This document shows positions 11,168-49,517 of a DNA stretch of 64,000 nucleotides, piece by piece. The position numbers and the translations under genes were made by a program. The notes beneath the pieces were generated by a model. That model searched no databases. It was not told the origin of the DNA and was given only the letters and a program-made list of their open reading frames with translations. Source of the stretch: Candidatus Omnitrophota bacterium (GTDB taxonomy: Bacteria; Omnitrophota; Gorgyraeia; JAFGGP01); assembly GCA_016930485.1 (NCBI GenBank), contig JAFGGP010000011.1, forward strand, positions 51,196 through 115,195. Direction: 5' to 3'. The first letter of the stretch is position 1. Each line of letters begins with the position of its first letter.

Positions 11168-11261
11168 TTTTTGTATCGTTCTGTAGCAAGAAAAGTTAGG
11201 ATGACCAGAAGCCTTTTCAGAACCCGCCTTTTTATAAAATCCGCTTGGTTATAAAGTTTTC

Positions 11262-11290: not shown

Positions 11291-11323
11291 TTTTTTGTTT
11301 CTCACCTAACCCTAATTATAATT

Positions 11324-12922: not shown

Positions 12923-15787
12923 ATGTATAGACAGCTGCGTGTGGTCATGGCGGTTCTTTTTGGAATAGTTGCTGTGATGCCGGCACTTCCGTCCGGCAGC
13001 GTGTCGGCTCAGGAAGAAGTTCTCTCCGTCGGCACGACAGCTCCCTCGAGTCCGGTTAACTTCAAGCATTATGAAGAACCGGATTTTTTTACGTATCAAC
13101 GGGTCTATAAGAAGGTAAGATGTCCAAACTGCGGTATGGAATCTTACATCAAGAGGGTTCAGTCTGCTTTGGAGCTGGAAGAAGAGAGGCAGCCCAAGGA
13201 GACAAAGAAAGAAGAAGATTTTACGAAAGAAATTCTGGCAGAGGTATTTCCTGCTGAACCGACCGCCGAAGGCGAAGAGGCGCTCAAAACCTCCGAGACT
13301 ACCAAGGGCACCGGTCGTGCCGGTGCCGTATCACCGCTCGAGATGCGTCTGCAGAATAGAGAGCGGAATGCGCTGAAGCGCCAGGTAGAGATCGAGATGG
13401 TAGGGTGCCCTTATTGCCAGTTTCATTTTCATCCCACCTATACGCCGGATCAGATCCGTCAGTTATTCCAGGAAGACGAGAGCGGGCTCTCCCCGCTTGA
13501 AAGGTCATATAGTCAGGCTATTACGTATGAGATCTCGCGGGACCTGAGGCAGTTCGGCTATGATATGTTTGAAGAGGCGCAGGCACAAAAGAGGACTGAA
13601 GCAACCACCCAGACGGATTCCGGGGACGTTGCCGAAGAGAGCGCAACGCTCTTACAATCGTTAAAAAACAAGATATCGATCGCGGATAGGGATATCACCG
13701 GAGGTGGTCTGGACAATTTTTCCCAAACCCAGCCGTTCACCGTTCCGGTAGATGCGGATTATGTCATCGGTCCCGGCGACACATTTATTATTAATGTCTG
13801 GGGAACGACCCAGCAGAGCTTTCCGGTAACGGTTGATATGGAGGGAAAAATAATTCTTCCCAAGGCAGGACCGGTGTATGTGTGGGGACTGCGGTTTAAT
13901 GAGGTCGAAGACCTGATCATCCAGAGGCTCAAGCAGTATTACAGCAATTTTCAGGTTGATGTCTCGATGGGCAAGCTGAAACAAATTCGGGTTTTTGTCC
14001 TTGGCGAGGTCGAACGGCCGGGCACCCACATGCTGAGTTCACAGTCAACCGTTATGCATGCGCTGATGACCGCCGGAGGGCCGTCAAAGCTGGGCTCGTT
14101 AAGGAAGATTCAGTTGTTGCGCTCGGGCGAGGTAAAGCAGGTTATCGATCTGTACGATATTCTCATAAAAGGCGATAAGGCCTATGATTTACGCCTGATG
14201 AGCGACGATACCATTTTCGTCCCTCCTATCGGTGATGTGGTGGCTATCGCGGGCAATGTCAAGAGGCCCGGTATTTACGAGACAAGGAGCGAGATTCCGC
14301 TGAGTGACCTGCTCGGTTTTGCCGGCGGCATTATGCCGACCGGCTCGCTCCATCGGGTTCAGGTCGAACGGATCACCGATAACGAACGCCGGACCGTGCT
14401 CGATATCGACCTGAAAGGCATCTCCGATATACCTCAGTTTACGAAGACCGTATCCTTGCAAAACGGCGATCTGGTAGTTGTGGAACCGATTCATAACCTG
14501 CGCCATAATTTTGTTACCGTTGTCGGCAATGTCCAGGCCCCCGGTGATTATGAGTTAAAAACCGGCATGACCGCCAACGACCTTCTGACCGAGGCACGCG
14601 GTCTTTTGCCTGGCACACACATGGCACACGCCGAGATAGCGCGGGTCAACGAACAGGGTCAACGCCGTATTATTCCGATAGATCTGACGGCGGTGACCCG
14701 CGGTGACATCAATCAGAACCTCATGCTTTCCGAGTGGGATATTATCGTTGTCTATTCCGAGGCCGATATTACCCCGCCGGCATTTGTGGAGATTTTCGGG
14801 GCGGTGCATTTTCCCGGCACCTATGAGCTGAGTCCGGGCATACATGCAAAGGATATCATCTTCAAGGCAGGCGGGATTAAAAATACCGCCTCTTTGGACA
14901 ATGTCGAAATTTTTCACTATATCCCTGGAGAGAATCCCGTTGTTTATTCGATTAGTCTCGATAGTGAGACAGGGCCTGAGTTGGTAGACGGTGACCAGGT
15001 TTTTGTACGGGAGGATTCTGCACGGGTAGGGCGCCAGCTGATTACGCTCAAGGGTGAGGTCCGTTATCCGGGTACCTATGCGGTCCGGAAAGGCGAACGG
15101 TTAAGCTCTATTATCGAACGCGCAGGCGGCTTTACCGATAATGCCTTTTTGGAAGGCGCTGTCTTTACCAGGGAAAGCATCAAGAAGGCGCAGCAGAATG
15201 TCATAAAGCGTTTCGTAAAGATACAGATGCAGTCGATACTCGAAGAAGAATCAGCGGCCAGATCAGAGAGAGCATCGCGTCTCAACAGGACCGGTGTGGG
15301 CGGAGGAATACCCGACGCAGCTACTCCGCGCAAGCAACTTCTCCAGCTCTTGGCGTCGACCGAGGTAGAAGGCAGAATGGTGATAAAGCTTTCCCCTGAT
15401 GTAAATATGGAGGGCACAGAAGATGACATTCTGGTCGAGGGCGGCGATTCTTTGTATATACCTCAGGTGACACCGACGATTCAGGTGATCGGCGCAGTGA
15501 ATAACGCAATGAACGTCCTCTATGAAGAAGGGAAAGGACTCGATTACTATCTCGAGAAGGCCGGCGGCATGACGCGCCATGCCGATATAGAACGTACGTA
15601 TGTCATCCGGGCCAACGGGGAGGCGCAGGGCAGGTTTGCCCGCATAGCCGAGATCCATCGGGGCGATACCATCGTCGTTCCGCACGACGTACGCTATCGC
15701 ATTCCGAGAGATGCGTTTATGATGGATGTCATTGATGTCGTATCGAGAATCGCGATCGGTGTTGCTTTTATTGCAGCCGTTGATTGA
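12923..15787 (+). CDS. Large Wza/KpsD-like polysaccharide export protein (Poly_export domain plus 6 SLBB repeats)
   Basis: AAGGAGG RBS and a signal peptide. Poly_export motif IGPGDTFIINVWG. Six repeats of the SLBB pattern (V..G.V..PG.Y.L......L.D.L..AGG), starting at about aa 355, 450, 535, 620, 710 and 845. Confidence 0.75.
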   Translation: MYRQLRVVMAVLFGIVAVMPALPSGSVSAQEEVLSVGTTAPSSPVNFKHYEEPDFFTYQRVYKKVRCPNCGMESYIKRVQSALELEEERQPKETKKEEDFTKEILAEVFPAEPTAEGEEALKTSETTKGTGRAGAVSPLEMRLQNRERNALKRQVEIEMVGCPYCQFHFHPTYTPDQIRQLFQEDESGLSPLERSYSQAITYEISRDLRQFGYDMFEEAQAQKRTEATTQTDSGDVAEESATLLQSLKNKISIADRDITGGGLDNFSQTQPFTVPVDADYVIGPGDTFIINVWGTTQQSFPVTVDMEGKIILPKAGPVYVWGLRFNEVEDLIIQRLKQYYSNFQVDVSMGKLKQIRVFVLGEVERPGTHMLSSQSTVMHALMTAGGPSKLGSLRKIQLLRSGEVKQVIDLYDILIKGDKAYDLRLMSDDTIFVPPIGDVVAIAGNVKRPGIYETRSEIPLSDLLGFAGGIMPTGSLHRVQVERITDNERRTVLDIDLKGISDIPQFTKTVSLQNGDLVVVEPIHNLRHNFVTVVGNVQAPGDYELKTGMTANDLLTEARGLLPGTHMAHAEIARVNEQGQRRIIPIDLTAVTRGDINQNLMLSEWDIIVVYSEADITPPAFVEIFGAVHFPGTYELSPGIHAKDIIFKAGGIKNTASLDNVEIFHYIPGENPVVYSISLDSETGPELVDGDQVFVREDSARVGRQLITLKGEVRYPGTYAVRKGERLSSIIERAGGFTDNAFLEGAVFTRESIKKAQQNVIKRFVKIQMQSILEEESAARSERASRLNRTGVGGGIPDAATPRKQLLQLLASTEVEGRMVIKLSPDVNMEGTEDDILVEGGDSLYIPQVTPTIQVIGAVNNAMNVLYEEGKGLDYYLEKAGGMTRHADIERTYVIRANGEAQGRFARIAEIHRGDTIVVPHDVRYRIPRDAFMMDVIDVVSRIAIGVAFIAAVD

Positions 15788-15978: not shown

Positions 15979-16737
15979 ATGAAACGCTCCGTCAAAAACC
16001 AGGGAGGATTCCTTATGGATACCTACAGTACTGCGTCGATACTCTATTATTTTAACGTGCTTAAAAAGTACTGGCGCTTTATAGCCGTTGTCGTAATAAT
16101 AGCAACGGTCATTTCGGGGTTAAAAGGAATGCGCACCCCGAGATCCTATACAGCGGAGGTTGTGCTTCTTCTGCCGGCGTCAGAAGGGGGAAACTCTACC
16201 TCGTCTTCTATCGGCCGTTTTTTGGGAATCCCAAACCTTTCGGGCGGCGGCTCCTCAACGAGCCTGCTAGGAGCCATCATTAAAAGCCGCAAGATGGCCG
16301 AGGATATTGTTGAACACTTTAATTTGGCGGATAAGACAAAGCCCGGTGCCTGGGAGTCTGCGATACGGGGCACTAAAGGGAAAATCTTTCTTCCCCCGTC
16401 GCTCAATACCGTAACTCTCAGCATAAAAGCGAGCGACAGGGACCCTAAACGTGCGGCTCAAATAGCCAATTTTTGCGCGGAGAATTTAGATAATATAAAC
16501 GAAGAGCTTCAGATTACGACACAGAAGCCTATGGTTAAGATACTCGATGAGGCTACCCCGCCGCTGGCGCCCAATCCCCGGGGAGTCAAAAAACGCGCTT
16601 TGACCTCTGGTTTATTCGCTGGTCTGATGTGTATCCTTGGCGTCTTTTTCCTTGAGTATATAGCGTATCTAAAGAGGAAGAAAGAACCCAACGTTACATC
16701 AGAACTGCTCGAGGAGGAATTGAGCAATATTACATGA
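15979..16737 (+). CDS. Wzz/PCP-like chain-length determinant protein (no kinase domain)
   Basis: Wzz N-terminal motif (ILYYFNVLKKYWRFIAVVVIIATVISGL), a periplasmic region, and a C-terminal TM helix (LTSGLFAGLMCILGVFFLEYIAY). Start placed at the ATG after GAGAGAGG; the track ORF begins at 15940. Confidence 0.6.
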   Translation: MKRSVKNQGGFLMDTYSTASILYYFNVLKKYWRFIAVVVIIATVISGLKGMRTPRSYTAEVVLLLPASEGGNSTSSSIGRFLGIPNLSGGGSSTSLLGAIIKSRKMAEDIVEHFNLADKTKPGAWESAIRGTKGKIFLPPSLNTVTLSIKASDRDPKRAAQIANFCAENLDNINEELQITTQKPMVKILDEATPPLAPNPRGVKKRALTSGLFAGLMCILGVFFLEYIAYLKRKKEPNVTSELLEEELSNIT

Positions 16738-16954
16738 CACTAACCGGTCTAGCCGCTGTTGACCGGAGAGGGAAAAGGGAAGACGGGTGGCCGCCCGCGG
16801 GACCTCGACCATCGGGAATATCTCAGAGATACTATTATATTATGCTCAGGATGGAATTCGGGACTGTTTCGCACATCCCGTTTTTTAAGAGATACGAACA
16901 TTGCAATGTTTCTGATTCGTTATACTTCCAATGAGTGCATACAAGGAGGAAGAG

Positions 16955-17965
16955 ATGATTGATTGGCCGAAAAAGACTATTTTATTGACCGGCGGGACAG
17001 GCTCTTTTGGACGCGCCTTCACGGAGGCCATGCTCGAAAAATATAAACCGAAGACAGTAAGGATATTCAGCCGCGATGAACTCAAACAGTACGAAATGGC
17101 CAGACATTTTCATAATTCCGAGCGCCTCCGGTTTTTTATCGGTGACATCCGGGACAAGAACAGACTGGAGCGGGCTATGGATGGCGCAGATATCGTCATT
17201 CATGCCGCCGCATTAAAGCAAGTGCCCTTATGTGAATACAACCCTTTTGAGGCGGTTAAGACCAATATCTTCGGTGCCCAAAACATAATCGACGCCGCCA
17301 TCGATCATAACATTGAAAAGGTTCTTGCCATTAGCACCGACAAGGCCGTAAGCCCGGTAAATCTGTACGGCGCGACAAAAATGTGTATGGAGAAGTTATT
17401 TATCGCAGGAAATGCGTATGTCGGTGGTGCGAGACAGACCCGCATGAGTTGCGTCAGATATGGCAATGTTGTTGGATCGCGGGGGAGTGTTATACCGCTT
17501 CTCCAGCAGCAGCGCCCATCAGGGAAAATTACCCTCACCGATCAAAAGATGACCCGTTTCTGGATCACGCTGCAACAGGGGGTGGAGCTTGTTATCCGTT
17601 CTGTAGAGAAGATGCACGGCGGGGAAATTTTTGTGCCCAAGATACCCAGCATGAAACTCGTTGATCTGGCCCATGCCATTGCACCGGATTGTGAAATCCG
17701 CTATATCGGGGTGCGCCCCGGAGAAAAAATCCACGAGGCCTTAATTACACAGGATGAGGCCCGCCATACATTGGAGTTCGACGATTTCTTTGTGATACAA
17801 CCTGAATTTCCCCGGTGGGAAACGAATAATTGGGTCGGCGGCAGGCCCCTTGCCTCCGGATTTACCTATACAAGCGACACGAACGAAAAATGGCTCACCC
17901 CGACCGAGCTTCGGGAGATGGCAGAGGCATATGAAGACCATACCGTATGGACAGCAGCGGCTTGA
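16955..17965 (+). CDS. pseB: UDP-GlcNAc 4,6-dehydratase/5-epimerase (inverting), PseB
   Basis: KTILLTGGTGSFG...IGDIRD...IHAAALKQVPLCEYNP matches the PseB/FlaA1 (Polysacc_synt_2) family. Start chosen at the ATG 5 nt after the strong AAGGAGGA RBS. Confidence 0.8.
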   Translation: MIDWPKKTILLTGGTGSFGRAFTEAMLEKYKPKTVRIFSRDELKQYEMARHFHNSERLRFFIGDIRDKNRLERAMDGADIVIHAAALKQVPLCEYNPFEAVKTNIFGAQNIIDAAIDHNIEKVLAISTDKAVSPVNLYGATKMCMEKLFIAGNAYVGGARQTRMSCVRYGNVVGSRGSVIPLLQQQRPSGKITLTDQKMTRFWITLQQGVELVIRSVEKMHGGEIFVPKIPSMKLVDLAHAIAPDCEIRYIGVRPGEKIHEALITQDEARHTLEFDDFFVIQPEFPRWETNNWVGGRPLASGFTYTSDTNEKWLTPTELREMAEAYEDHTVWTAAA

Positions 17966-19130
17966 CAGTGCCGACATTAAGAGCGTGGTAACGGTTCTGA
18001 GGTCGGAATGGCTCACCCAGGGTCCGCGGGTCAAGGACTTTGAAAGAGCCCTGTGCCGGTATACGGGGGCACGCTACGCAGTTGTGGTCTCCAGCGGGAC
18101 AGCCGCATTGCATATAGCGTGTCTGGCCGCGGAGATAAGCAAGGGGGACGAGATCATTACCTCTCCGGTTACGTTTGCCGCTTCGGCAAACTGCGCCGTT
18201 TATTGCGGCGGTCGGCCGACATTTGCCGATGTTAGAGAAAACACAATTAATATCGATCCGGAAAAAATAGCGGCAAACATCACGAAAAAAACCAGGGTGA
18301 TCATTCCCGTTCACTTTGCCGGAAATCCCTGCGACCTCACCGAGATACACGCCATCGCCAGAAAGAACGGGCTTATTGTGATCGAGGATGCCTGTCATGC
18401 CCTGGGCGCCGAGTACAAGGCGGGACGCAGGTGGCTTAAGATAGGTTCCTGCAGGCATTCGGATATGGCGGTGTTCAGTTTTCATCCCGTTAAAACCATT
18501 ACCGCGGGCGAGGGCGGGGCCGTCCTGACCAACGATGCCACTTTGTACGAACGGCTGCTTCTTCTGCGCAATCACGGTATTACCCGTAATAGAAGTCACT
18601 GGGTAAGCGCCTCCGACAATCTCAAGGATATGTGTATAACGAGCAATATCTCTTCCGCCTTCTGGTATTACGAAATGCAACTCCTCGGATACAATTACCG
18701 GATTACCGATATCCAGTGCGCGTTGGGTATTTCACAGATGAAAAAAGTGGATGCGTTCGTAGAGAGTCGCCGGCAAAAGGCCGATGCGTACCAGAAAGAA
18801 CTGGGACACGTCAAAGGGCTTCGTCTTCCCTGTGAGTCGGAAGGCACAAGGTCTTCCTGGCACATTTATCCGGTGCGGGTCTCTGGAAGGGAAAAAAGGC
18901 AGCGGCTGTTTGAGTATCTGCTGAAAAACGGGATAGGGAGCCAGGTGCATTATATCCCCGTCCACCTACAACCATACTACCGCAGGGAGTTCGGCACAAA
19001 GAACGGGGATTGTCCCGTTGCCGAAGAGTATTTTAAACAGTGTCTGAGCATCCCACTCTATCCGGGATTGTCATGGACAGACCAGTCAAAGGTAATACGG
19101 AATATAAAGGGCTTTTTCAAGAATGACTAA
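17931..19130 (+). CDS. pseC: DegT-family aminotransferase, PseC-like (UDP-4-amino-4,6-dideoxy-AltNAc transaminase)
   Basis: MKTIPYGQQRLDSADIKSVVTVLRSEWLTQGPRVKDFE N-terminus typical of PseC, and a PLP-lysine region SFHPVKTITAGEGG. Overlaps the end of pseB by 35 nt. Confidence 0.7.
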   Translation: MKTIPYGQQRLDSADIKSVVTVLRSEWLTQGPRVKDFERALCRYTGARYAVVVSSGTAALHIACLAAEISKGDEIITSPVTFAASANCAVYCGGRPTFADVRENTINIDPEKIAANITKKTRVIIPVHFAGNPCDLTEIHAIARKNGLIVIEDACHALGAEYKAGRRWLKIGSCRHSDMAVFSFHPVKTITAGEGGAVLTNDATLYERLLLLRNHGITRNRSHWVSASDNLKDMCITSNISSAFWYYEMQLLGYNYRITDIQCALGISQMKKVDAFVESRRQKADAYQKELGHVKGLRLPCESEGTRSSWHIYPVRVSGREKRQRLFEYLLKNGIGSQVHYIPVHLQPYYRREFGTKNGDCPVAEEYFKQCLSIPLYPGLSWTDQSKVIRNIKGFFKND

Positions 19131-20016
19131 TCCTTTTGTCAAAAAACTGTGCCTAGGGACGGCTCAACTGGGCATGGATTACGGAATTGCCAATAAGACC
19201 GGAAAAGTTCCACGTGATCAGGCATTAAATATAGTGCAGTATGCACACGAGGCAGGCATAGATACTTTGGATACGGCATATGTGTATGGAGACAGTGAAG
19301 AGATTATCGGTCATTTTTTATCAGGGGCAAAAAGGGCGTTCAAGGTTGTTTCTAAATTGCCGCCCCTGGACGACAAAAGCACCTTAGAAGACATAGAAGA
19401 CGCCGTTAAGACTTCTCGAGACAGATTAAAAATTCAGGTGCTGTATGGGTATTTGATCCATAGGCCTCGCGATTTCTTGCAACATAAAGGGTTATGGAAT
19501 GCATTAGAGACTCTGAGAGAAAAAGGTATTATGAAAAAAATAGGTTTTTCAATCTGTACGACTGAAGAACTTGAAATGATTTTTAAAAACAACATAGCGA
19601 TAGATATTCTTCAACTTCCGTACAGCATCTTTGATCGTCGATTTGAGAAGTATTTTTCAGAATTGAAGGAGCGTAATATTGAAATTCATGCGAGATCCGC
19701 GTTTCTTCAAGGGTTAGTTTTTTTAACGCCCGGTGCCTTGCCTTCCAATCTTTCGAAGGCAAAAGATCCTATTGAGAAGTTACACAAGGCATCCAGAGCC
19801 CTTCATTTACCAATACATGCAGTGTGTATAAATTTTGTTTTGTTGCAGTCTTATATCGATAAAGTAGTAATAGGTGTTGATCACTTGGAGCATTTAAAGA
19901 AAAACGTAGAGGCCCTGAAGGCTATACACAAGGTTAAGAAAGCATATGGTAAATTAATGCCATTAGAAATAGACGACGAACAAATCCTCCTTCCGTATAA
20001 CTGGAATATAAAATGA
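19123..20016 (+). CDS. Aldo/keto reductase family oxidoreductase
   Basis: CLGTAQLGMDYG...GIDTLDTAYVYGDSEEIIG core of the AKR superfamily. Lies in the low-GC segment. Confidence 0.7.
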   Translation: MTNPFVKKLCLGTAQLGMDYGIANKTGKVPRDQALNIVQYAHEAGIDTLDTAYVYGDSEEIIGHFLSGAKRAFKVVSKLPPLDDKSTLEDIEDAVKTSRDRLKIQVLYGYLIHRPRDFLQHKGLWNALETLREKGIMKKIGFSICTTEELEMIFKNNIAIDILQLPYSIFDRRFEKYFSELKERNIEIHARSAFLQGLVFLTPGALPSNLSKAKDPIEKLHKASRALHLPIHAVCINFVLLQSYIDKVVIGVDHLEHLKKNVEALKAIHKVKKAYGKLMPLEIDDEQILLPYNWNIK

Positions 20017-22067
20017 AAACAGTTGCGATTATTCAGGCGAGAATGGGGTCTTCGAGATTGCCGAACAAGGTCCTTATGGAGATCGAAAAAAAGCCCATGC
20101 TGTGGCATATAGTACAACGGGTTTCTTCGGCAAAATTGCTGGACGATGTTGTTATCGCTACCTCGAGGAGCCAGAGAGACAGACCACTTGAAAAGTTTGC
20201 CAGAGAAAATAAGTTCAAGCTGTTTAAGGGGGCAGAGAATAACTGCTTAGATCGATATTACAAGGCTGCCAAGGCATCAAAGGCAGACGCGATTGTACGG
20301 ATAACCGGCGACTGTCCTTTGATCTGCCCCGAAGTCATTGACAAGGTATTATCGGAATATTCGAAAGGCAAGCATGACTATGTGGCAAACACGCTCTTTT
20401 ATACTTACCCAGATGGTTGCGATGTTGAGGTATTTTCATTCAAGGCCCTGGAGAAGGCCTGGAAGGAGTGCAAGGACAGGGTAGGCAAGGAACACGTGAC
20501 CCCTTATCTTAGAAATTCAAGCATGTTTAAGTTAAAAAATGTAGAGAGCGAAACTCCAGTTGATCCAAAGGACTATAAATGGTCGGTAGATAGGCTTGAA
20601 GATCTGAATCTCGTTAGAGAGGTGTATAAACATCTGTATACAAAACAGAGGGACTTTTCAATGAATGCAATTTTCGATCTTGTAAAAAAGCACCCCTATT
20701 TAAAAAAGATCAACTCGGAAACTATCGTGAACGAGGGTTATTATAAAAGCTTTTTGAAGGCCGAGAAAATAAGGCCAAAAAAAATAAGGATTGCACAATC
20801 CCTGGCATTAAAAAAAAGGGCTAGAAGATTAATACCTGGTTGTAGTCAGACATTCAGTAAGGCTCCCTCACAGTTCGTTCAGGGCATCGCTCCGGTATTT
20901 TTGGAAAAGGGCTCAGGCAGCCATGTGTGGGATGTAGATGGGAATGAATATATCGATTATTCAATGGCGCTGGGCCCGATTATTTTAGGATACAATTATC
21001 CGCTGGTTACTAGGGCGGTCAAGGTGATGTTAGAGAAAGGCGTTACTTTTACTCTGCCTCACCGTCTTGAAGGAGAGCTGGCCGAGATGCTCTGCGAGTT
21101 GATACCGTGCGCAGAGATGGTGCGGTACGGAAAAAACGGCTCTGATGTGACCTCTGCCGCGGTGCGGGTCGCGCGGGCATATACGTCTCGCGATAAAATC
21201 GCCTGCTGTGGTTATCACGGCTGGCAGGACTGGTATATTGCCACTACGACGAGAAATAAGGGAATCCCTCAGGCGGTCAAGGATCTGACGCTCACCTTTA
21301 ACTATAACGATATAGAGAGTCTAAAAAAACTGTTTACCGAAAACAAAAATCAGATTGCCTGTGTCATTATGGAGCCGGTCGGGGTTGTTGAGCCGAAGGA
21401 TAATTTTTTGGAGAAGGTAAAAGAGCTCACCCATAAAAACGGCGCACTCTTGATATTTGATGAGGTCGTTACAGGTTTCCGGTTTTCACTGGGTGGAGCT
21501 CAAACGCTTTTCGGCGTTGTTCCTGACCTTGCCTGTTTTGGCAAGGCGATGGGAAACGGTTTTCCGATATCAACTGTTGTAGGCAGAAGAAAAATCCTCA
21601 AATTATTTGAGGAGGTATTTTTCTCTTTTACCTTTGGAGGAGAGATTCTTTCCATCGCTGCCTCAATCGTGACGATTAAAGAGCTTAAGAAAAAGAATGT
21701 TATTCAATATTTATGGAAACAGGGCAGAAAACTTAAAGACGGATACAACGTCTTAGTTAAGGCCCACCAACTTGAACGATATACCGAGTGTACAGGCTTT
21801 TCGCCGAGGACTATCATTATGTTCAGAAATAGAGAGGGGGCGACAGATCTTTTACTCAAGAGCCTTTTTCAGCAGGAGTGCATAAAGCGAGGTATCTTAT
21901 TTACCGGAGGACAGAATATGTGTTTTAGTCACTCCGACAGTGATATCGAACGTACGTTACGGGTATATAATTCTGTATTAGAAATTGTTAAAAGAGCTAT
22001 TAAACAAGATAAAGTAAGAAAGCTTATCAAAGGTGAAATAGTTAAGCCAATATTTAGAAAAGCATAA
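20013..22067 (+). CDS. Bifunctional protein: N-terminal PseF/SpsF-like nonulosonate cytidylyltransferase fused to a class-III (GSA-aminomutase-like) PLP aminotransferase
   Basis: N-terminal domain: MKTVAIIQARMGSSRLPNKVL...ITGDCPL, the cytidylyltransferase (CTP_transf_3) pattern. C-terminal domain: VRYGKNGSDVTSAAVRVARAYT...FDEVVTGFRF...CFGKAMGNGFPIS, the class-III aminotransferase pattern. One continuous 684-aa ORF. Confidence 0.7.
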   Translation: MKTVAIIQARMGSSRLPNKVLMEIEKKPMLWHIVQRVSSAKLLDDVVIATSRSQRDRPLEKFARENKFKLFKGAENNCLDRYYKAAKASKADAIVRITGDCPLICPEVIDKVLSEYSKGKHDYVANTLFYTYPDGCDVEVFSFKALEKAWKECKDRVGKEHVTPYLRNSSMFKLKNVESETPVDPKDYKWSVDRLEDLNLVREVYKHLYTKQRDFSMNAIFDLVKKHPYLKKINSETIVNEGYYKSFLKAEKIRPKKIRIAQSLALKKRARRLIPGCSQTFSKAPSQFVQGIAPVFLEKGSGSHVWDVDGNEYIDYSMALGPIILGYNYPLVTRAVKVMLEKGVTFTLPHRLEGELAEMLCELIPCAEMVRYGKNGSDVTSAAVRVARAYTSRDKIACCGYHGWQDWYIATTTRNKGIPQAVKDLTLTFNYNDIESLKKLFTENKNQIACVIMEPVGVVEPKDNFLEKVKELTHKNGALLIFDEVVTGFRFSLGGAQTLFGVVPDLACFGKAMGNGFPISTVVGRRKILKLFEEVFFSFTFGGEILSIAASIVTIKELKKKNVIQYLWKQGRKLKDGYNVLVKAHQLERYTECTGFSPRTIIMFRNREGATDLLLKSLFQQECIKRGILFTGGQNMCFSHSDSDIERTLRVYNSVLEIVKRAIKQDKVRKLIKGEIVKPIFRKA

Positions 22068-22628
22068 ATGAACTTCTTGTCTGATGTAAAGAACCAGGAA
22101 AGCACCGCGCATATCAAGGGCGAAAGAATATACCTGCGCGAAATCAACGTTTCTGACGTGAATGAACGTTATCTCGGCTGGATGAATGATTCGGAGGTCA
22201 CGCGGCATTTGCTGTGTGATGCTGAAAAATGGACGTTAGGAAAACTTAAAAAGTATGTAAAAAAGATGAAAAAGGATCCCAACTCTATATTTTTTGGGAT
22301 ATTTCTTAATGCGAATGAAACACATATAGGGAATTTAAAAATCGGTTCGATAGACTACAGGAACAACTTTGCGGATATAGGCCTACTTATTGGGGAAAGA
22401 ACAATGTGGGGCCAAGGATATGCTTCCGAGGCGATAAGATTAGCGGTCGATTTTTCCTTTAATACACTAAATCTTCATAAGTTGACTGCTAGTGTGCTTT
22501 CAATCAATATAGGTTCTGTAAGGGTTTTTCAAAAGTGCGGCTTCTCTATCGAGGGCAAAAGAGAAAAACAGTATTTTTATGATGGGGATTATCAGGATAG
22601 TATTTTATTCGGAATTATCAAAAAATGA
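22068..22628 (+). CDS. GNAT N-acetyltransferase (candidate PseH)
   Basis: 186 aa. Acetyl-CoA binding motif QGYASEAIRLAVDFSF and a RimL/PseH-like size. Positioned between the cytidylyltransferase fusion and pseG. Confidence 0.55.
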   Translation: MNFLSDVKNQESTAHIKGERIYLREINVSDVNERYLGWMNDSEVTRHLLCDAEKWTLGKLKKYVKKMKKDPNSIFFGIFLNANETHIGNLKIGSIDYRNNFADIGLLIGERTMWGQGYASEAIRLAVDFSFNTLNLHKLTASVLSINIGSVRVFQKCGFSIEGKREKQYFYDGDYQDSILFGIIKK

Positions 22629-23671
22629 AAATTGCCATACTGACTGAAGGCGGCAAAAATATCGGTTTTGGTCATATCACGCGCTGTGTGGCCCTCCTAG
22701 AGGGGTTGAAAAAGGCCGCCGGCCGGAGAGTCGCGGGCATGTTCGTGATTAATAATGACAGGAGGGCCGTGCGCTTCCTCGAAAGTCAGGGGGTGAGGCT
22801 GACGGCATTCGACTGGATTGAAAAAAGAAAAAAGACGGCCGGCATCCTGAAAGGGGCGGACCTCGTTATCATAGATTCTTATTTTGCCCCCCCGTCATTC
22901 TATTCGTTTCTTTCGCATAAGACAAAAGACACACACCCCTTTGTGGTGGCAATCGATGATTATAAACGCATTGAGTACGACGCTGATCTGGTTATCAATC
23001 CCTCGATATATGGCGATGCCCTCTCGTATGCGCCGGGCAGGGAACACAGAGCCGGTCGCCGCCCTGAATATTTACTGGGAAGGAGTTATATTATCGTACG
23101 CAGGGAGTTCTGGAATGTCCCGAGAAAAAAAATCAATAAAAAGATCCGGAACGTGCTGGTTTCTTTCGGTGGGAAGGACTACGATCCGTTTACCGAGGCT
23201 GTTTTTACATTTTTGGAGACGGAGTTTCCTCATCTTGCCTATGACGTTGTAGCCCCGTCCCGGCCGGCCGGTCTTTCCCGGTCTCGATTCAGGTTTTATT
23301 CCAATGTCTCCGCCGCGAAGATGCGTTCTCTCATGTTGAAGGCGGACCTGTGTATTTCTGCCGGCGGGCAGACCCTGCACGAGCTGGCGCGGTGCGGCGT
23401 TCCGGCCGCGTCGATTTGCTTTGCCGATAATCAGGTGAAGAATCTTAAGGGGTGGGAGAAGATCGGTTTTGCAAAGTATGTTGGCTGGTATGACGACCGA
23501 AATGTTTTTGCCAGATTAGGGAGGGCAGTCTGCGCGCTCTCGCCTTATAAGGAGAGGCTGCTCCGGAGCAGGATAGGAAGACGGATCGCAGCCAAAGGGG
23601 TAGAGAGGATAAGCAGGGTTTTACTGACCAAGACAGCACTCAAACAAAAGGAGACGGCACATGAGTCGTGA
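22625..23671 (+). CDS. pseG: UDP-2,4-diacetamido-2,4,6-trideoxy-beta-L-altropyranose hydrolase, PseG (GT28-like fold)
   Basis: MKIAILTEGGKNIGFGHITRCVALLEGL N-terminus is the PseG hallmark. C-terminal half (ISAGGQTLHELARCGVPAAS) is MurG/GT28-like. Confidence 0.7.
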   Translation: MKIAILTEGGKNIGFGHITRCVALLEGLKKAAGRRVAGMFVINNDRRAVRFLESQGVRLTAFDWIEKRKKTAGILKGADLVIIDSYFAPPSFYSFLSHKTKDTHPFVVAIDDYKRIEYDADLVINPSIYGDALSYAPGREHRAGRRPEYLLGRSYIIVRREFWNVPRKKINKKIRNVLVSFGGKDYDPFTEAVFTFLETEFPHLAYDVVAPSRPAGLSRSRFRFYSNVSAAKMRSLMLKADLCISAGGQTLHELARCGVPAASICFADNQVKNLKGWEKIGFAKYVGWYDDRNVFARLGRAVCALSPYKERLLRSRIGRRIAAKGVERISRVLLTKTALKQKETAHES

Positions 23672-24704
23672 TGGGCATGTTACTTTCAACAAGTGCTTTA
23701 TCATTGCCGAGGCAGGCAGCAATCACAATGGTTCGCTCGACCAGGCAAAACGGCTGGTAGACGTTGCAAAGGATGCGGGTGCCGATGCCGTGAAGTTTCA
23801 GCTCTTTCGCGCCAAGACCCTTTACCCCAATAAACACATAAAAGTCAAGTATTTGAAGGACATGGGGATTCGCGAGGGGTTATTCGAGATTATCAGGAAA
23901 TTCGAAATGCCCTATACCTGGGTGAAGGAACTGTATAGTTACACAAAAAAGAACGATATTATGTTCATGACCACCCCTTTTGATGCCAAGGCGGTGGAGG
24001 TTCTCAATCCTTACGTGGATATATTTAAAATTGCTTCGTACGAATCGTTGTTTTTGGACCTGATCTGTGCGGTCAAACAAACCAAAAAACCTCTTTTTAT
24101 ATCTACGGGCGGATGCACCGAGGAAGAGGTTGATTTGCTGATGAAGGGGGCCCTGTACGATTATCTTGATAAGACGACACTCCTGCACTGTATCGCGAAG
24201 TATCCGGCTCCGCTTGATCAGCTGCAGCTGCAGGTGATACCGCACTTCTCCAGAAAGTATGGTGTAACCGTCGGATATTCCGACCATTCGGAGGACCCGA
24301 TCATTGCGCCGGTGTGCGCGGTTGCGCTGGGCGCAAAGGTAATCGAGAAACACTTTACGCTGAGTAAGCAATTGCCCGGCCCGGACCACGCCTTTGCGGT
24401 CGAACCGGATGAATTACAGGCGATGGTGAAGGCCGTGCGCATGACAGAGAAGACGGTTGCGGGAAGCGGTAAAAGAACCCTGCAGCCCTGCGAGAAAGAA
24501 CTCTATTACTATAAACGCTGCCTTTACAGCAGGAGAGATTTATCGAAAGGACACAGGATCAGAAAGAGCGATGTGACGGTACTGAGAAATGTAGGGCTTA
24601 AGTGCGATTATTTTAATCCTATAGAGATCGACGACCTTATCGGCAGGACATTAAAAGGCGATAAAAGGGCCAATGATATTATAACAAAGGAAGATGTGAC
24701 ATGA
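23661..24704 (+). CDS. pseI: Pseudaminic acid synthase PseI (NeuB family, C-terminal SAF domain)
   Basis: FIIAEAGSNHNGSLDQAKRLVDVAKDAGADAVKFQ NeuB TIM-barrel motif and a C-terminal SAF/antifreeze-like domain. Confidence 0.8.
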   Translation: MSRDGHVTFNKCFIIAEAGSNHNGSLDQAKRLVDVAKDAGADAVKFQLFRAKTLYPNKHIKVKYLKDMGIREGLFEIIRKFEMPYTWVKELYSYTKKNDIMFMTTPFDAKAVEVLNPYVDIFKIASYESLFLDLICAVKQTKKPLFISTGGCTEEEVDLLMKGALYDYLDKTTLLHCIAKYPAPLDQLQLQVIPHFSRKYGVTVGYSDHSEDPIIAPVCAVALGAKVIEKHFTLSKQLPGPDHAFAVEPDELQAMVKAVRMTEKTVAGSGKRTLQPCEKELYYYKRCLYSRRDLSKGHRIRKSDVTVLRNVGLKCDYFNPIEIDDLIGRTLKGDKRANDIITKEDVT

Positions 24705-25564
24705 GCACCGAATGCACAGGAAAACTCATCTTAGAAAGAGCCGACAGAAGGCTTATAGACTGCAAAAAGTGCGGGTATATGCATATATTTCCTATGTACA
24801 CGGAAGAGGAATTGGAACATTTTTATGAGAATGTGTACTCCGAGAGTACGCCGAGTTACATCTGGTATGAAAAATTTCACAATATCCAGCGGTGGAAGCC
24901 GCAGGGTACGGTTCTTGATATCGGATGCTGGGAAGGCGCCCAGCTTGAGATTTTTAAGGAACACGGCTGGAAGTGTACCGGTATAGAACTAAATAAAAAA
25001 GCAGCGGCCACGGCAACTACAAGGGGGCTGGAGGTTCACCAGCTTTCTATTCAAGAATTTTTTAAGAAGTTTCGCGGGGCCAGAAGATGGGACGTTATTA
25101 ATGTTGCCTATATTTTGGAACACATTCCAAAACCGGCTGATTTTCTGAAAAAAATAGGCGCCTTTTTGAAAAAGGGCGGTTTTATCATCGTAGAGGTCCC
25201 TAACGAATTCAGTCCTTTCCAGATAGCCTATCTGAAGGAACACAGCATGTCCCCATATTGGATAAAGTTACCCGACCACGTTAACTACTTTAATAAAAGA
25301 GGCCTCGAGAACCTCATGAAGTCGACAGGCTGGAAAAAGATTCACGGCCACACCTCCTTTCCGATGGAGATGTTTCTCTTGATGGGGGATAACTATCTGA
25401 AGGACAACAAACTCGGAAGGCGCAGCTTTCGCAAAGTTGTCGAGATGGAGAGGATCCTGAGGCTTTACAAGACGGGACTGGTCTCGCGGATGTATTCTGC
25501 GCTCTATCACTGCGGGATAGGCAGAAGCCTTGTCATCTACGCGCAAAAGAAAAAAATGAGATGA
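24701..25564 (+). CDS. Class-I SAM-dependent methyltransferase with an N-terminal C4 zinc-ribbon
   Basis: N-terminal ...CKKCGYMH plus an upstream Cys. SAM-binding motif I (VLDIGCWEGAQL) and motif II (WDVINVAYILEHI). Confidence 0.65.
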   Translation: MSTECTGKLILERADRRLIDCKKCGYMHIFPMYTEEELEHFYENVYSESTPSYIWYEKFHNIQRWKPQGTVLDIGCWEGAQLEIFKEHGWKCTGIELNKKAAATATTRGLEVHQLSIQEFFKKFRGARRWDVINVAYILEHIPKPADFLKKIGAFLKKGGFIIVEVPNEFSPFQIAYLKEHSMSPYWIKLPDHVNYFNKRGLENLMKSTGWKKIHGHTSFPMEMFLLMGDNYLKDNKLGRRSFRKVVEMERILRLYKTGLVSRMYSALYHCGIGRSLVIYAQKKKMR

Positions 25565-26316
25565 GAATAGCCGTATTTGCCGATGTACACGGCAACATGT
25601 ATGCCTTTGAGAAGATTCTGGAGGCCCTGAAAAAAGAGAGGGCCGATCTTCATATCTTCTGCGGCGATATCTGCGGGTACTATTACCAGCAGGACGAGGT
25701 CATTCAGGCGCTTCGCCAGATGCGTAATCTGGTAAGTGTCGTAGGGAATCACGATGAGATATTTCTCAGGATGCTGGAGGATACACGTCTTGAGGAAGAG
25801 TATACAAAGCAGTACGGCAGGTCATGCTCACTCTTTAAAGAAAGCGCCGCGTTAGAAAGTGTAACATTTTTAAAGGAGTTACCGAAAAAGTATATCATTG
25901 AAGAATATGCCGTAGCCGTTTTTCACGGCAGCCCCTGGGATTACTGTAATGAGTATGTGTATCCCGATGGCGCTCTAGACAGGTTTCGTGAGCTGCCTTA
26001 TCGGTTTGTTCTGCTTGGCCACACGCATTATCCGATGGACAGAATTGCCGGCGGTGTAAGGATTATTAACCCCGGCTCATGCGGCCAGCCGAGGGATATG
26101 CATATACCCAGTTACGCGGTCCTGGATATTGACAGCGGAGAAGTTATATCCAGGCGCGTTCCGTATAATACCGAGTATTTGAAAAATGACGTCAGAAGAT
26201 ACAAAGAAGACAATCTCTATTTAGAGGAGATTTTGACAAGAGGGGAAGGGTGTTATGAGCAGGCGAACTGTACTAGTCACCGGAATCGGCGGGGATATCG
26301 GCCAGAGCGTACTTAA
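25561..26316 (+). CDS. Calcineurin-like metallophosphoesterase (YfcE/MJ0936-like)
   Basis: MRIAVFADVHGN, GDICG, GNHDE and GHTHYP metal-ligand motifs. Confidence 0.6.
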   Translation: MRIAVFADVHGNMYAFEKILEALKKERADLHIFCGDICGYYYQQDEVIQALRQMRNLVSVVGNHDEIFLRMLEDTRLEEEYTKQYGRSCSLFKESAALESVTFLKELPKKYIIEEYAVAVFHGSPWDYCNEYVYPDGALDRFRELPYRFVLLGHTHYPMDRIAGGVRIINPGSCGQPRDMHIPSYAVLDIDSGEVISRRVPYNTEYLKNDVRRYKEDNLYLEEILTRGEGCYEQANCTSHRNRRGYRPERT

Positions 26317-27241
26317 GTGTCTCAGAGAGATTCCCTATGATTTCCTCCTGGCAGGCTGTGATATCGATGCCTTTGCGGGAGGTAGGACGCTGGTCGACGC
26401 CTTTTACCATGCCCCGAAGGCCTCCGAAGCGGAAGGATATCTCGCGTTTATCAAGACTATACTGGCAAAGGAAGAGGTAAAGTATATATTTCCCGTGACC
26501 GAGATCGAGATAGATTTTTTCGATAAGCACAGGGCGTATTTTGAAAAGGACGTTACCGTTTTTATAAACACAGGCGATATCAATGAGATTTTTTTCGACA
26601 AGTATGAGACGGCGAAGTTCCTCGGCAAACACAACATTGCCTATCCGGCAACGTATTTGCTCGGGGATTACAATGATGAGTTAAGCCTACCCGTTATTGT
26701 GAAATCACGCAGGGGCTGTGGCGGCAGAGGAATGCTGATAGTGTGCGACCGTGACGAGCTTATGTTTCTAAAGAGCAAGATGAAAGATGGCATCGTACAG
26801 GAATTGGTCGGGGCCGAGGACGATGAGTATACGGTGAGCATCTTTTCCGGGGGAGGAAAAACGTATTCTATCGCCTTTCGGAGGACCCTTGGCTATGACG
26901 GACTCAGCAAGGTTGCCCGGCTGACGACAGATAACAGGATAACAGCGCTCGTTGACAGTATCGTGGAGGCGACGTCGCTCGAAGGGGTCCTGAACGTTCA
27001 GTGCAGAAAAAGGAATGCTGAGTACGTGCCCTTCGAAATCAATCCCCGGCTCTCAAGCACCGTCTACACCCGCCACTATTTTGGTTTTCAGGATGTGAAG
27101 TGGTGGATGGATACTGCCGAAGGAAAAGAAGTTGTCTATGTGCCGAAGTTCAAAGATGGCGTCGCGGTGAGGACTATCAGTGAGGTCTTTTTTGATCTTG
27201 AGTCCGCAGACAGCCCGGACAATATACGCACATTGCGATAA
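26255..27241 (+). CDS. ATP-grasp family ligase
   Basis: Pre-ATP-grasp Rossmann N-domain, then VIVKSRRGCGGRGMLIV and E..Y/N.. ATP-grasp motifs. About 330 aa, like PylC/RimK-type amide ligases. Confidence 0.55.
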   Translation: MSRRTVLVTGIGGDIGQSVLKCLREIPYDFLLAGCDIDAFAGGRTLVDAFYHAPKASEAEGYLAFIKTILAKEEVKYIFPVTEIEIDFFDKHRAYFEKDVTVFINTGDINEIFFDKYETAKFLGKHNIAYPATYLLGDYNDELSLPVIVKSRRGCGGRGMLIVCDRDELMFLKSKMKDGIVQELVGAEDDEYTVSIFSGGGKTYSIAFRRTLGYDGLSKVARLTTDNRITALVDSIVEATSLEGVLNVQCRKRNAEYVPFEINPRLSSTVYTRHYFGFQDVKWWMDTAEGKEVVYVPKFKDGVAVRTISEVFFDLESADSPDNIRTLR

Positions 27242-27250
27242 AAGGAACAA

Positions 27251-27955
27251 ATGAGCCGCCCGGATAAGAAAAGATATATTATTGCCGCCAGCAAATCCTG
27301 GAATATAGAGGCAGCCAGATCCTTTATTGCCGATAGCCCCGACTTACAGATAAAGCTTATAACAGACAAAAAGGCGCTTACCTACGGGGAGATAAAGAAC
27401 TTCAATCCCCGCTACGTCTTTTTCCTGCATTGGTCGTGGCTGATACCTCAGGCGATTCACCGGAACTACGACTGCGTCGTTTTTCATATGACTGATTTAC
27501 CTTTTGGCAGGGGCGGTAGCCCTCTCCAGAATTTGATAGAGAGAGGGATATATAAAACGAAGATTGCGGCCATAAAGGCGGTCCGGGAGCTGGACGCGGG
27601 AGATATCCTGCTTAAGAAGAGCCTGACTCTGGAGGGGTCTGCTGACGAGATATTCAGGCGCGCGACAAAAATTATCTTTACATCCATGATTCCCCGAATC
27701 ATCAAAGACGAGCCGGTTCCTGTTCCTCAGAAGGGGAAGGTGGTTCGTTTTAAAAGGCGTCTTCCCGAGCAGGGCACTATAGCCCGGTTGAGCAGTCTAA
27801 CAAAGGTCTATGATTACATAAGGATGCTGGACGCAGAGGGGTATCCGCCCGCCTTTATGGAGGTGTCCGGATTAAGGTTGGAATTTTTTGATGCACAGAA
27901 GAAAAAGGACTATATTACGGCAAAGGTCAGGCTGAGGATAAAAGATGAAACATAA
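27251..27955 (+). CDS. Formyltransferase-family protein (Fmt/PurN fold)
   Basis: HMTDLPFGRGGSPLQ matches the H-x-S/T-x-LP-x-x-RG-x-x-P-x-Q formyltransferase catalytic loop. Confidence 0.6.
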   Translation: MSRPDKKRYIIAASKSWNIEAARSFIADSPDLQIKLITDKKALTYGEIKNFNPRYVFFLHWSWLIPQAIHRNYDCVVFHMTDLPFGRGGSPLQNLIERGIYKTKIAAIKAVRELDAGDILLKKSLTLEGSADEIFRRATKIIFTSMIPRIIKDEPVPVPQKGKVVRFKRRLPEQGTIARLSSLTKVYDYIRMLDAEGYPPAFMEVSGLRLEFFDAQKKKDYITAKVRLRIKDET

Positions 27956-28625
27956 CATTTTGATTGTAGCCGCTCATCCGGACGATGAGATTCTCGGGTG
28001 CGGGGGTACGGTTGCGCGCTTGATTAAAGAAGGGCATGCAGCGTATACGTTACTGTTGGGCGAGGGGGTAACCTCGCGAGATGAGGAGCGCGACCCGAAA
28101 AAACGGGGAAAAGAGATTAACAGCCTGAGAAACCAGGCCCAGCAGGCTAACGCTGCCCTCGGGGTAAAAGAAGTTTTTATACATAGCTTTCCGGATAACA
28201 GATTTGATACGGTGCCGCTTTTGGATATTGTCAAGGTTATAGAAAAGACAAAAGAGAAAGTAAAACCTGCCCTTGTCTTTACTCATTATGCGAATGACCT
28301 CAATATCGATCACCGCATTACCTGTGCCGCAGTTCTCACCGCTACCAGACCCGTGTTGGATGAGACAGTAAAAGAAATCTACTCGTTTGAGGTACCTTCT
28401 TCTACAGAGTGGAACTATCCCTTGAGTTTTTCCCCGAATGTATATTTTGATATCTCACAGACGATAGATGTGAAGTTGCAGGCAATAAAGCAGTACGTTT
28501 CAGAGATCAAAGAGCCACCCCACCCCAGGTCTCAGGAAGGCGTAGAGCTCAATGCAAGGATGTGGGGGATGAAGGTGGGACTTGGGTATGCCGAGGCCTT
28601 TACATGCGTGAGGCGCCTGGCGTAG
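27945..28625 (+). CDS. PIG-L/LmbE-family N-deacetylase
   Basis: ILIVAAHPDDEILGCGGTVARL zinc-binding signature of LmbE/PIG-L deacetylases. Confidence 0.75.
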   Translation: MKHNILIVAAHPDDEILGCGGTVARLIKEGHAAYTLLLGEGVTSRDEERDPKKRGKEINSLRNQAQQANAALGVKEVFIHSFPDNRFDTVPLLDIVKVIEKTKEKVKPALVFTHYANDLNIDHRITCAAVLTATRPVLDETVKEIYSFEVPSSTEWNYPLSFSPNVYFDISQTIDVKLQAIKQYVSEIKEPPHPRSQEGVELNARMWGMKVGLGYAEAFTCVRRLA

Positions 28626-49513: not shown

Positions 49514-49517
49514 TATC

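Follow-up and report, generated by a model that had tools for sequence, protein, structure and literature searches.

We analysed a 64,000-nucleotide window of a Candidatus Omnitrophota genome (assembly GCA_016930485.1, contig JAFGGP010000011.1, positions 51,196 to 115,195), in which the listing of open reading frames (ORFs) gives a single long series of plus-strand genes that includes a block at 16931-24704. Our subject is this block and the operon to which it belongs, which appear to direct the synthesis of a CMP-activated nonulosonic acid (NulO) and which include a gene fusing a cytidylyltransferase to a class-III aminotransferase. A first-pass annotation had described the block as a complete pathway to CMP-pseudaminic acid (CMP-Pse). 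The ORFs that it named all exist, co-oriented and tightly packed, by ORF listing and profile matches; that reading took no account of the gene for an aldo/keto reductase (AKR) or of seven tailoring genes lying downstream.

The block begins with PseB, the inverting UDP-GlcNAc 4,6-dehydratase (16931-17965; TIGR03589, PDB 2GN4), whose ORF opens at 16931 and has its second in-frame ATG at 16955. PseC, the DegT-family UDP-4-amino-4,6-dideoxy-AltNAc transaminase, follows (17931-19130, the start being that of the Logan gene call; TIGR03588). The AKR (19123-20016; PF00248, 123.7 bits) is a separate gene that overlaps the gene for a 684-residue fusion protein (20013-22067), which joins an N-terminal CTP_transf_3 domain to a C-terminal Aminotran_3 domain and which we call CT-AT3. 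Its CT part is an SpsF/KdsB-type cytidylyltransferase domain (20013-20780; PF02348, 110.9 bits) and its AT3 part a class-III, pyridoxal 5'-phosphate (PLP)-dependent aminotransferase domain resembling glutamate-1-semialdehyde aminomutase (GSAM) (20781-22067; PF00202, 173 bits). Then come a SpeG-like GNAT N-acetyltransferase (22068-22628; profile and PDB matches), a PseG-like UDP-sugar hydrolase of GT28-like fold (22625-23671; TIGR03590) and a NeuB-family nonulosonate synthase of an SpsE-like clade (23661-24704; PF03102 and SAF). Between adjacent genes of the block there is either an overlap of a few bases or a gap of less than 35 nt, and promoter- and terminator-like signals inside the operon show no enrichment over shuffled sequence; because of this tight packing and lack of internal signals above the shuffles, the genes look like one operon. 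That operon passes 24704 uninterrupted and reaches at least 31155 and probably 36983.

Families were called with the curated equivalog cut-offs of NCBIfam, with Pfam and by sequence comparison with the PDB. On these measures PseB and PseC score as genuine equivalogs. PseB reaches 499.6 bits with TIGR03589 (cut-off 407.75), and its best PDB match is PseB/FlaA1 of Helicobacter pylori (2GN4, 380 bits), ahead of CapE (251) and PglF (138); the LegB family TIGR04180 scores 61.6, below its cut-off of 475. PseC reaches 497.1 bits with TIGR03588 (cut-off 423.5), against 244.6 with the LegC family TIGR04181 (cut-off 420). The claim of a complete CMP-Pse pathway thus survives in its first part, a NulO route that begins with genuine PseB and PseC, but these two are the only enzymes of the block that reach their equivalog cut-offs.

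The hydrolase falls just short: TIGR03590 is its sole NCBIfam match, at 135.6 bits just under the cut-off of 153.55, and PseG of Campylobacter jejuni (3HBM) is its sole and weak PDB match (E=0.007). In related loci, PseG homologues, fused or free, pass the TIGR03590 cut-off with 235-241 bits. The GNAT is a different matter. It had been taken as the candidate PseH, an assignment that does not hold: it scores 47.2 bits with the PseH family TIGR03585, below the cut-off of 93.1, and 56.6 with SpeG, and its best PDB matches are spermidine acetyltransferases, not PseH. There are related loci that carry a PseH-type domain fused to PseG and, besides it, a free GNAT; the window GNAT matches these free GNATs with 100-196 bits and the fused PseH-type domains of the same loci with 15-30 bits. 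It is therefore orthologous to an 'extra' SpeG-like GNAT family that co-occurs with PseH-type domains. True PseH does occur among relatives (177 bits in locus L004), and in the window the PseH step could still be covered by this GNAT or by another enzyme.

The synthase likewise departs from the first-pass annotation, which had called it PseI. It scores 262.5 bits with the PseI family TIGR03586 (cut-off 340.25) and 288.1 with NeuB_NnaB (cut-off 399.65). Against the PDB it matches SpsE of Bacillus subtilis with 207.6 bits, PseI (8H2C) with 172 and NeuB of Neisseria meningitidis with 94; identity is 41.9% with SpsE and 36.2% with PseI. We built a neighbour-joining tree (258 aligned columns, 200 bootstraps) from homologues at related loci, database matches and PDB references, a set without LegI of C. 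jejuni or Legionella. In 189 of the 200 bootstraps the window synthase falls together with SpsE and with sequences from haloarchaea and Dehalococcoidia, apart from PseI, and a PseI clade that contains C. jejuni PseI and the synthases of most related loci leaves it out in 199. The first-pass annotation had staked its reading on PseB and the synthase not grouping with non-Pse clades; the synthase falls with SpsE, partly contrary to that reading, and PseB stays Pse-type. A sialic-acid (Neu5Ac) pathway with a NeuB proper was considered and ruled out by the sub-threshold NeuB_NnaB score and the 94-bit match to N. meningitidis NeuB; it is further disfavoured since PseB and PseC yield a 6-deoxy diamino substrate.

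The CT-AT3 fusion is the most distinctive protein of the operon. Its CT domain had been described as PseF/SpsF-like, of which the SpsF part stands: it scores 27.1 bits with the PseF family TIGR03584 (cut-off 205.7), and its best PDB match is 6OEW, a 'cytidylyltransferase' (137.6 bits), with KdsB at about 42 bits, so that it classes as SpsF/KdsB type and not as PseF. We take it to be, presumably, the CMP-NulO synthetase of the pathway, since neither the genes of the window operon nor the accessory-gene clusters annotated at related loci yielded a second cytidylyltransferase. What the earlier description had left out is the fusion partner. AT3, the C-terminal 434 residues, scores 452 bits with PRK06209 (cut-off 486) and 281-283 with HemL (TIGR00713, cut-off 527.3); in sequence it comes closest to GSAMs (about 230 bits), with FumI and aminoglycoside C-6' aminotransferases among the PDB relatives that rank next below them. 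Aligned to Synechococcus GSAM, it retains the PLP lysine and the aspartate motif DEVxTGFR (as DEVVTGFR), has lysine in place of Arg32 and threonine in place of Ser29, and lacks nine residues within the region aligned to the gating loop, which we take to be residues 153-181 of the Synechococcus enzyme. A genuine HemL was rejected on the sub-threshold score, the shortened gating loop and the NulO-operon context; AT3 differs from GSAM/HemL also in its fusion to a cytidylyltransferase and in a NulO rather than a haem setting. The canonical CMP-Pse pathway contains no such class-III aminotransferase, and automatic annotation hides the fusion under the names 'glutamate-1-semialdehyde aminomutase' or generic 'class III aminotransferase'.

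The fusion is far from unique to this genome. A scan that took one genome per species found confirmed CT-AT3 relatives in at least 589 species genomes, and the best 120 database matches are all fusions of about 683 residues. The best 80 loci of these at least 589 species genomes all match along nearly the whole fusion length and span more than 10 phyla plus archaea, among them Omnitrophota, Acidobacteriota, Desulfobacterota, Dehalococcoidia, Planctomycetota, Verrucomicrobiota, Elusimicrobiota, Aquificota and Woesearchaeota. The gene family is thus already deposited and widespread, and the window holds one member of it. Among the 59 loci that are fully flanked, the fusion has PseB as a neighbour in 55, PseC in 55, NeuB in 58 and PseG in at least 44; the recurrence of this same set around fusion homologues shows that the gene arrangement is not due to chance. 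Seven of ten synthases sampled from fusion loci are true PseI (488-544 bits). Given this neighbourhood, the true PseI and the PseG homologues that pass their cut-off, the fusion classes as an integral part of Pse-type operons.

An oxidoreductase gene accompanies the fusion almost as regularly. It is fused to it or lies within three genes of it, nearly always just upstream, in 64 of the 74 loci that could be evaluated (86%): a GFO/IDH/MocA protein within three genes in 30 and fused in frame in 25, and an AKR within three genes in nine. The in-frame cases are triple fusions of GFO/IDH/MocA, SpsF-type cytidylyltransferase and class-III aminotransferase, of about 1028 residues, each encoded by an ORF at roughly 8960-12050 of its locus (L026, L028, L032, L040, L066 and some 20 further loci from Acidobacteriaceae). 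The best 120 homologues of the window AKR are all stand-alone proteins.

Cultured organisms have the module as well. Plasmid pSMR1-1 of Pseudosulfitobacter pseudonitzschiae (L086, 7063-16661) reads pseB, pseC, AKR, GNAT, a hypothetical gene, CT/AT3, pseG (with a GNAT domain) and pseI, beside a Wzy-like polymerase. This is nearly the window gene order, but with true PseI and PseG equivalogs; the product is uncharacterised. A plasmid of Halorussus aquaticus (L087, 3968-16127) carries separate genes for a GFO/IDH/MocA protein, CT and AT3 together with an SpsE-like synthase, and it also encodes a protein annotated 'alpha-2,8-polysialyltransferase family protein'. In two Desulfobacterota loci, L010 (12111-12503) and L011, a 130-residue gene of the PD-(D/E)XK nuclease family lies between CT-AT3 and pseG.

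Two possible counter-examples proved uninformative. Plasmid pNGR234b of Sinorhizobium fredii NGR234 encodes a stand-alone AT3 homologue with 41% identity (L085, 20019-21335), and the K-antigen of this strain is reportedly a plain Pse-type sugar. The ±20 kb around that gene contain no cytidylyltransferase, PseB, PseC or NeuB, which places the homologue outside any NulO cluster; this rhizobial megaplasmid gene indicates that the PRK06209-like aminotransferase family has further contexts beyond NulO. The legionaminic acid (Leg) cluster of Halorubrum PV6 relies on enzymes of the NeuA/NeuC type and lacks CT-AT3.

Downstream of the synthase the operon continues with tailoring genes, again on the plus strand: a SAM-dependent methyltransferase, MT1 (24701-25564; Methyltransf_23, 78.4 bits); a YfcE-type metallophosphoesterase (25561-26316; Metallophos_2, 90.4 bits, and TIGR00040, 72.7 above the cut-off of 56.25); a PylC-like/PRK12767 ATP-grasp ligase (26255-27241; NF009402, 216.9 vs a cut-off of 218, with ATP-grasp_3 and PylC-like_N); a formyltransferase-like protein (27251-27955; Formyl_trans_C_2, 75.7 bits, and a weak match to the ArnA formyltransferase domain); a PIG-L family N-deacetylase (27945-28625; PF02585, 90.3 bits); and a second SAM-dependent methyltransferase, MT2 (28658-29758; Methyltransf_23/11/12/25/31 and a weak UbiG-like match). 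Part of this set is shared with a few related loci. The trio of MT1, metallophosphoesterase and ATP-grasp ligase is common to the window and to loci L002, L003 and L007 (61% identity), and in L004 the place of the metallophosphoesterase is taken by a HAD hydrolase. The SpsE-clade synthases of the window and of the same three loci share 64% mutual identity, and none of the four has a PseH-type GNAT, whereas most relatives have true PseI and a PseH-type domain. This co-variation of the SpsE-clade synthase, the lack of the PseH type and the methyltransferase/phosphoesterase/ATP-grasp trio suggests, with low confidence, that the acyl group placed on the amine from PseC is not acetyl. That group might be a (methyl)aminoacyl residue added by the ATP-grasp ligase, a candidate amide-forming N-acyl ligase, and the synthase may be adapted to a substrate so acylated; we hold both of these ideas with equally low confidence. 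The PIG-L gene is present in 14 of the 59 fully flanked loci, with up to 67% identity, and a PIG-L/formyltransferase-like pair lies between PseG and NeuB in L027, L031, L047, L054 and L081. The pair in the window parallels the tailoring reported for Kuenenia, where deacetylation, formylation and methylation take place on the CMP-NulO (bioRxiv 10.64898/2026.04.20.719630).

Known systems resemble the locus in parts. With the CMP-Pse pathway of H. pylori and C. jejuni the window shares the PseB and PseC equivalogs, a PseG-like hydrolase and the general logic of UDP-GlcNAc to a 6-deoxy diamino hexose, condensation with phosphoenolpyruvate (PEP) and CMP activation; it differs in the synthase clade, the fused SpsF/KdsB-type cytidylyltransferase, the lack of a PseH-type GNAT, the extra oxidoreductase and the many tailoring genes. 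The sps pathway of B. subtilis, which is reported to give Leg (PMC7439481), and the FlmC/FlmD proteins of Caulobacter share with it the SpsE-like synthase clade, an SpsF/FlmC-type cytidylyltransferase and an SpsG/FlmD/PseG-like hydrolase. FlmC is SpsF-like and was proposed for the CMP-Pse step from its cytidylyltransferase resemblance; it is one of six enzymes of a glycosylation pathway reconstituted in Escherichia coli (PMC7591256). Neither system has an aminotransferase fusion or an adjacent oxidoreductase, the B. subtilis route has a Leg product and a different dehydratase, and the glycans concerned end up on the spore crust or on flagellin instead of in a polymer exported by Wza/Wzi. The lipopolysaccharide (LPS) cluster of Legionella pneumophila serogroups (Sg) 6/12 comes close in gene content, with a GNAT, PseG, a 'GSA aminomutase', a cytidylyltransferase and an aryl-alcohol dehydrogenase of the AKR type (PMC3694923). 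This is the same gene set as in the window, but it lies beside a Leg pathway, and its product is uncharacterised.

The closest experimental precedent comes from a prophage of Acinetobacter baumannii, in which EpaA (CTP_transf_3 plus Aldo_ket_red) acts with the short-chain dehydrogenase/reductase (SDR) EpaB to convert Pse5Ac7Ac to 8-epi-Pse5Ac7Ac (PMC12053666); it shows that a cytidylyltransferase of this kind works together with redox chemistry at C8. The window likewise couples CTP_transf_3 and Aldo_ket_red (PF02348 and PF00248, in adjacent overlapping genes), a comparison made by architecture only. The AKR that is fused in EpaA is a separate gene in the window, where the fused partner is instead a PLP aminotransferase, and the window operon has no EpaB-like SDR of the adh_short_C2 type, a class-III aminotransferase standing in its place. 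None of the 120 AKR homologues noted above is an EpaA-type fusion, and the phage collection gave no EpaA-like match. A Pse cluster in Vibrio carries an SpsF-AKR fusion followed by a dehydrogenase (PMC7371886). From EpaA/EpaB and the Vibrio fusion we conclude by analogy that coupling to redox tailoring of the completed nonulosonate is a recurrent feature of cytidylyltransferases of this type.

Taken as a whole, the locus reads as a nonulosonate pathway of the SpsE/SpsF type that starts with Pse enzymes and has an uncharacterised module of oxidoreductase and aminotransferase joined to its activating enzyme, rather than as a complete canonical CMP-Pse pathway; this much we base on the sequence. 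We think it probable, with moderate confidence, that the operon yields a CMP-activated NulO of the 5,7-diamino type along a non-canonical route resembling that to Pse, with tailoring at C8; we expect a Pse-type sugar that has been tailored, possibly a 5,7,8-triamino one, and not Pse5Ac7Ac. In the route that we propose, PseB and PseC would convert UDP-GlcNAc to UDP-4-amino-4,6-dideoxy-L-AltNAc, the amine of which would be N-acylated by the GNAT, the ATP-grasp ligase or the formyltransferase-like enzyme. The PseG-like hydrolase would then release the free hexose, and the SpsE-clade synthase would condense it with PEP. The oxidoreductase would oxidise a secondary alcohol of the NulO, most likely that at C8, the fused AT3 domain would turn the ketone into an amine, and the fused SpsF-type CT domain would then form the CMP-sugar. 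The N- and O-substituents could be remodelled by the PIG-L, formyltransferase-like and ATP-grasp proteins, the phosphoesterase and the two methyltransferases.

C8 of a 9-deoxy nonulosonate is a methyl carbinol, and we favour this position because its oxidation gives a methyl ketone; by analogy, a ketone there would be a typical substrate for a class-III transaminase. Pairs of a dehydrogenase or reductase and a PLP aminotransferase convert secondary alcohols of sugars to amines in several settings, such as WbpB/WbpE and NtdC/NtdA; the KdnB/KdnA pair makes Kdo8N, and the C6' methyl carbinol of G418 is the target of GenQ/GenB1. The extra SpeG-like GNAT beside a PseH-type domain would fit a third amine that has to be acylated. 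More tentatively, and short of an even chance in our estimation, the combination of oxidoreductase, SpsF-type cytidylyltransferase and class-III aminotransferase could represent an unrecognised, widespread NulO branch that yields CMP-5,7,8-triamino-3,5,7,8,9-pentadeoxy-nonulosonic acids through a C8 ketone. A triamino NulO has reportedly been found chemically in the O-antigen of Tenacibaculum maritimum; the genomics literature on that O-antigen gave no link to the module. The open-access literature searched held nothing relevant describing the module or triamino NulOs, though a published characterisation could be missed in such a search, and the oxidoreductase/aminotransferase module appears to be undescribed in the searchable open-access literature.

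Several observations weigh against this proposal. We infer both the position of the redox/transaminase step (C8 or C4) and its direction (amination, deamination or epimerisation); AKRs are usually reductases, and the outcome of EpaA/EpaB is epimerisation, not amination. The window is without a PseH-type GNAT that would acylate the PseC amine, and many triple-fusion loci have a single GNAT, so that a third amine would remain free there. The grouping of the synthase with SpsE, when the B. subtilis route reportedly leads to Leg (PMC7439481), means that Pse-type stereochemistry is not fixed by sequence.

The last point leads to one of the rival explanations, an sps-type, UDP-linked pathway to Leg, or to another stereoisomer that is not Pse, like that of B. 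subtilis SpsC/D/E/F/G. Besides the bootstrap support for SpsE and the higher identity with it than with PseI, this explanation can call on the SpsF-type cytidylyltransferase, the PseG/SpsG-like hydrolase, the GNAT and the reported Leg product of the sps genes. We nonetheless judge it quite improbable: the dehydratase is clearly PseB (380 bits to the H. pylori enzyme vs 138 to PglF), whereas B. subtilis has a separate, characterised dehydratase, SpsM (PMC7439481); PseC is above its equivalog cut-off and the LegC family below; and true PseI predominates among relatives with this type of operon. Very improbable, to our mind, is the canonical six-step route to CMP-Pse5Ac7Ac (PseB/C/H/G/I/F), with the AKR and the aminotransferase domain as passengers or housekeeping proteins, even though the block holds a candidate for each of the six steps, the PseB and PseC equivalogs among them, and the SpsF-like FlmC has been proposed as a PseF substitute in Caulobacter (PMC7591256). 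A passenger would not be expected to form a single protein with the cytidylyltransferase both in the window and in each of the 80 retrieved loci (of at least 589 species genomes), nor does an oxidoreductase that is fused or adjacent in 86% of the evaluable loci behave like one. A housekeeping HemL is contradicted by the profile score (281 vs 527) and the shortened gating loop, and the canonical route also has to contend with a synthase outside the PseI clade, a GNAT that is not PseH-type and seven tailoring genes downstream in the same operon.

We give more room, while still holding it unlikely, to an explanation in which the oxidoreductase and the aminotransferase act but add no amine to the backbone. 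They might effect an epimerisation at C8 (or C7/C8), in the manner of EpaA/EpaB or through a GSAM-like amino/oxo shift; or a deamination, from the amine through the carbonyl to the hydroxyl; or they might make an amino- or hydroxy-acid side chain for attachment by the ATP-grasp ligase. Epimerisation is what EpaA/EpaB achieve, AT3 is most similar to aminomutases, and reduction of a carbonyl is a normal AKR activity; a free 7-amine could exist in the window, which is without a PseH-type GNAT, and the ATP-grasp ligase, the phosphoesterase and the methyltransferases are present in the operon. Yet an epimerisation needs no PLP enzyme, the PseH-type domain that most loci have as PseG-GNAT fusions would block the 7-amine, and an ATP-grasp ligase occurs in only two of the 59 fusion loci at a stringent threshold. 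Pairs of GFO/IDH/MocA proteins and aminotransferases are, moreover, amination modules, as in WbpB/WbpE and NtdC/NtdA, and the fusion to a CMP-transferase indicates the NulO itself as the substrate. Amination of a Pse-type NulO, probably at C8, remains the reading that we prefer.

As for the destination of the sugar, the first-pass annotation had placed the block beside Wzi-, Wza- and Wzz-like export genes, a Wzx flippase and LptD, and had seen no flagellin or Maf genes in the window. Pfam and NCBIfam bear out this setting, and a scan of all ORFs of at least 150 residues in the window (Pfam and/or NCBIfam) found neither flagellin nor Maf. Upstream of the operon lie an LptD-like gene (4889-7045; profile match), two UDP-sugar dehydrogenases and, on the plus strand, Wzi (11324-12892; Caps_assemb_Wzi, 213 bits), an unusually long Wza-like protein of 954 residues (12923-15787; Poly_export and six SLBB repeats) and a Wzz-like protein (15979-16737; Wzz, 31.5 bits). 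The Wzx-type flippase is encoded within the operon (31172-32761, plus strand; Polysacc_synt_3, 55.3 bits). In comparison with a group-1-like Wzx/Wzy capsule, Wzi, Wza and Wzx are thus found in the window but the Wzc kinase and Wzy are not: no Wzc kinase was identified, the Wzz-like protein having 252-265 residues without a kinase domain, and no Wzy/O-antigen polymerase was matched by Pfam in the window. It is reasonable to take the Wzi, Wza, Wzz-like and Wzx genes and the many glycosyltransferases as arguing for an exported polysaccharide, and the gene context makes a capsule, exopolysaccharide or LPS a plausible destination.

Two plus-strand genes flanking the flippase may encode the transfer step. 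The first is a GT30 Kdo-transferase-like glycosyltransferase (29746-31155; PF04413, 97.5 bits, and NF004388, 209 vs a cut-off of 438), which could be the transferase for the CMP-activated ulosonic acid or else a divergent housekeeping WaaA; neither 83 related loci nor a metagenome pattern scan yielded any relative of it. The second, a 631-residue GT-B-like protein (32769-34664), has weak matches only (TIGR04396 surf_polysacc, 36.9; Epimerase_2, 33.7; Capsule_synth, 24.2) and is a candidate NulO transferase. One or both would transfer the sugar, Wzx would flip the product, and Wza and Wzi would export it. The downstream part of the operon also contains a radical-SAM/SPASM protein (34669-35727; profile match) followed by a GT4 glycosyltransferase gene.

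Further along the window are four GT-C/PMT_2 (ArnT-like) membrane glycosyltransferases (40669-42231, 44569-46026, 57148-58467 and 62020-63774), the last with a weak STT3 match; they could mean periplasmic glycosylation of lipid or protein, instead of or beside a capsule. A 723-residue protein of unusual architecture, a fusion of GT4 with radical-SAM/SPASM, is encoded at 58515-60686. The window also holds a second amino-sugar gene set at 47336-51604, comprising GFO/IDH/MocA (47336-48370), DegT (48371-49513), SDR (49518-50477) and a further DegT (50264-51604), of which the GFO/IDH/MocA and DegT pair at 47336-49513 resembles a 3-amination pair of the WbpB/WbpE type. Directly upstream of the polysaccharide locus are two tandem diguanylate cyclases, at 773-2200 and 2188-3477, one with GAF and GGDEF domains and the other with GGDEF; their position hints at control of exopolysaccharide by c-di-GMP.

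NulOs cap the surface glycans of bacteria, with effects on surface charge, on susceptibility to phage and on recognition by the immune system. That a Pse cluster lies in a polysaccharide locus is in itself nothing out of the ordinary; the value of this one is its membership in a large unstudied operon family, which includes culturable Pseudosulfitobacter, haloarchaea and L. pneumophila Sg6/12, so that the hypothesis of amination or other modification at C8 is testable in cultured hosts. If the triamino branch exists as we tentatively propose, it would account genetically for triamino NulOs, whose genes have been missing, and would give Omnitrophota, Acidobacteriota, Desulfobacterota, haloarchaea and some Legionella serogroups a new surface sugar that is zwitterionic or open to re-acylation. 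Should the module aminate the backbone, it would define a new NulO class and provide enzymes for the chemo-enzymatic synthesis of CMP-NulO analogues; should it epimerise or deaminate instead, it would still be an uncharacterised and widely distributed tailoring route.

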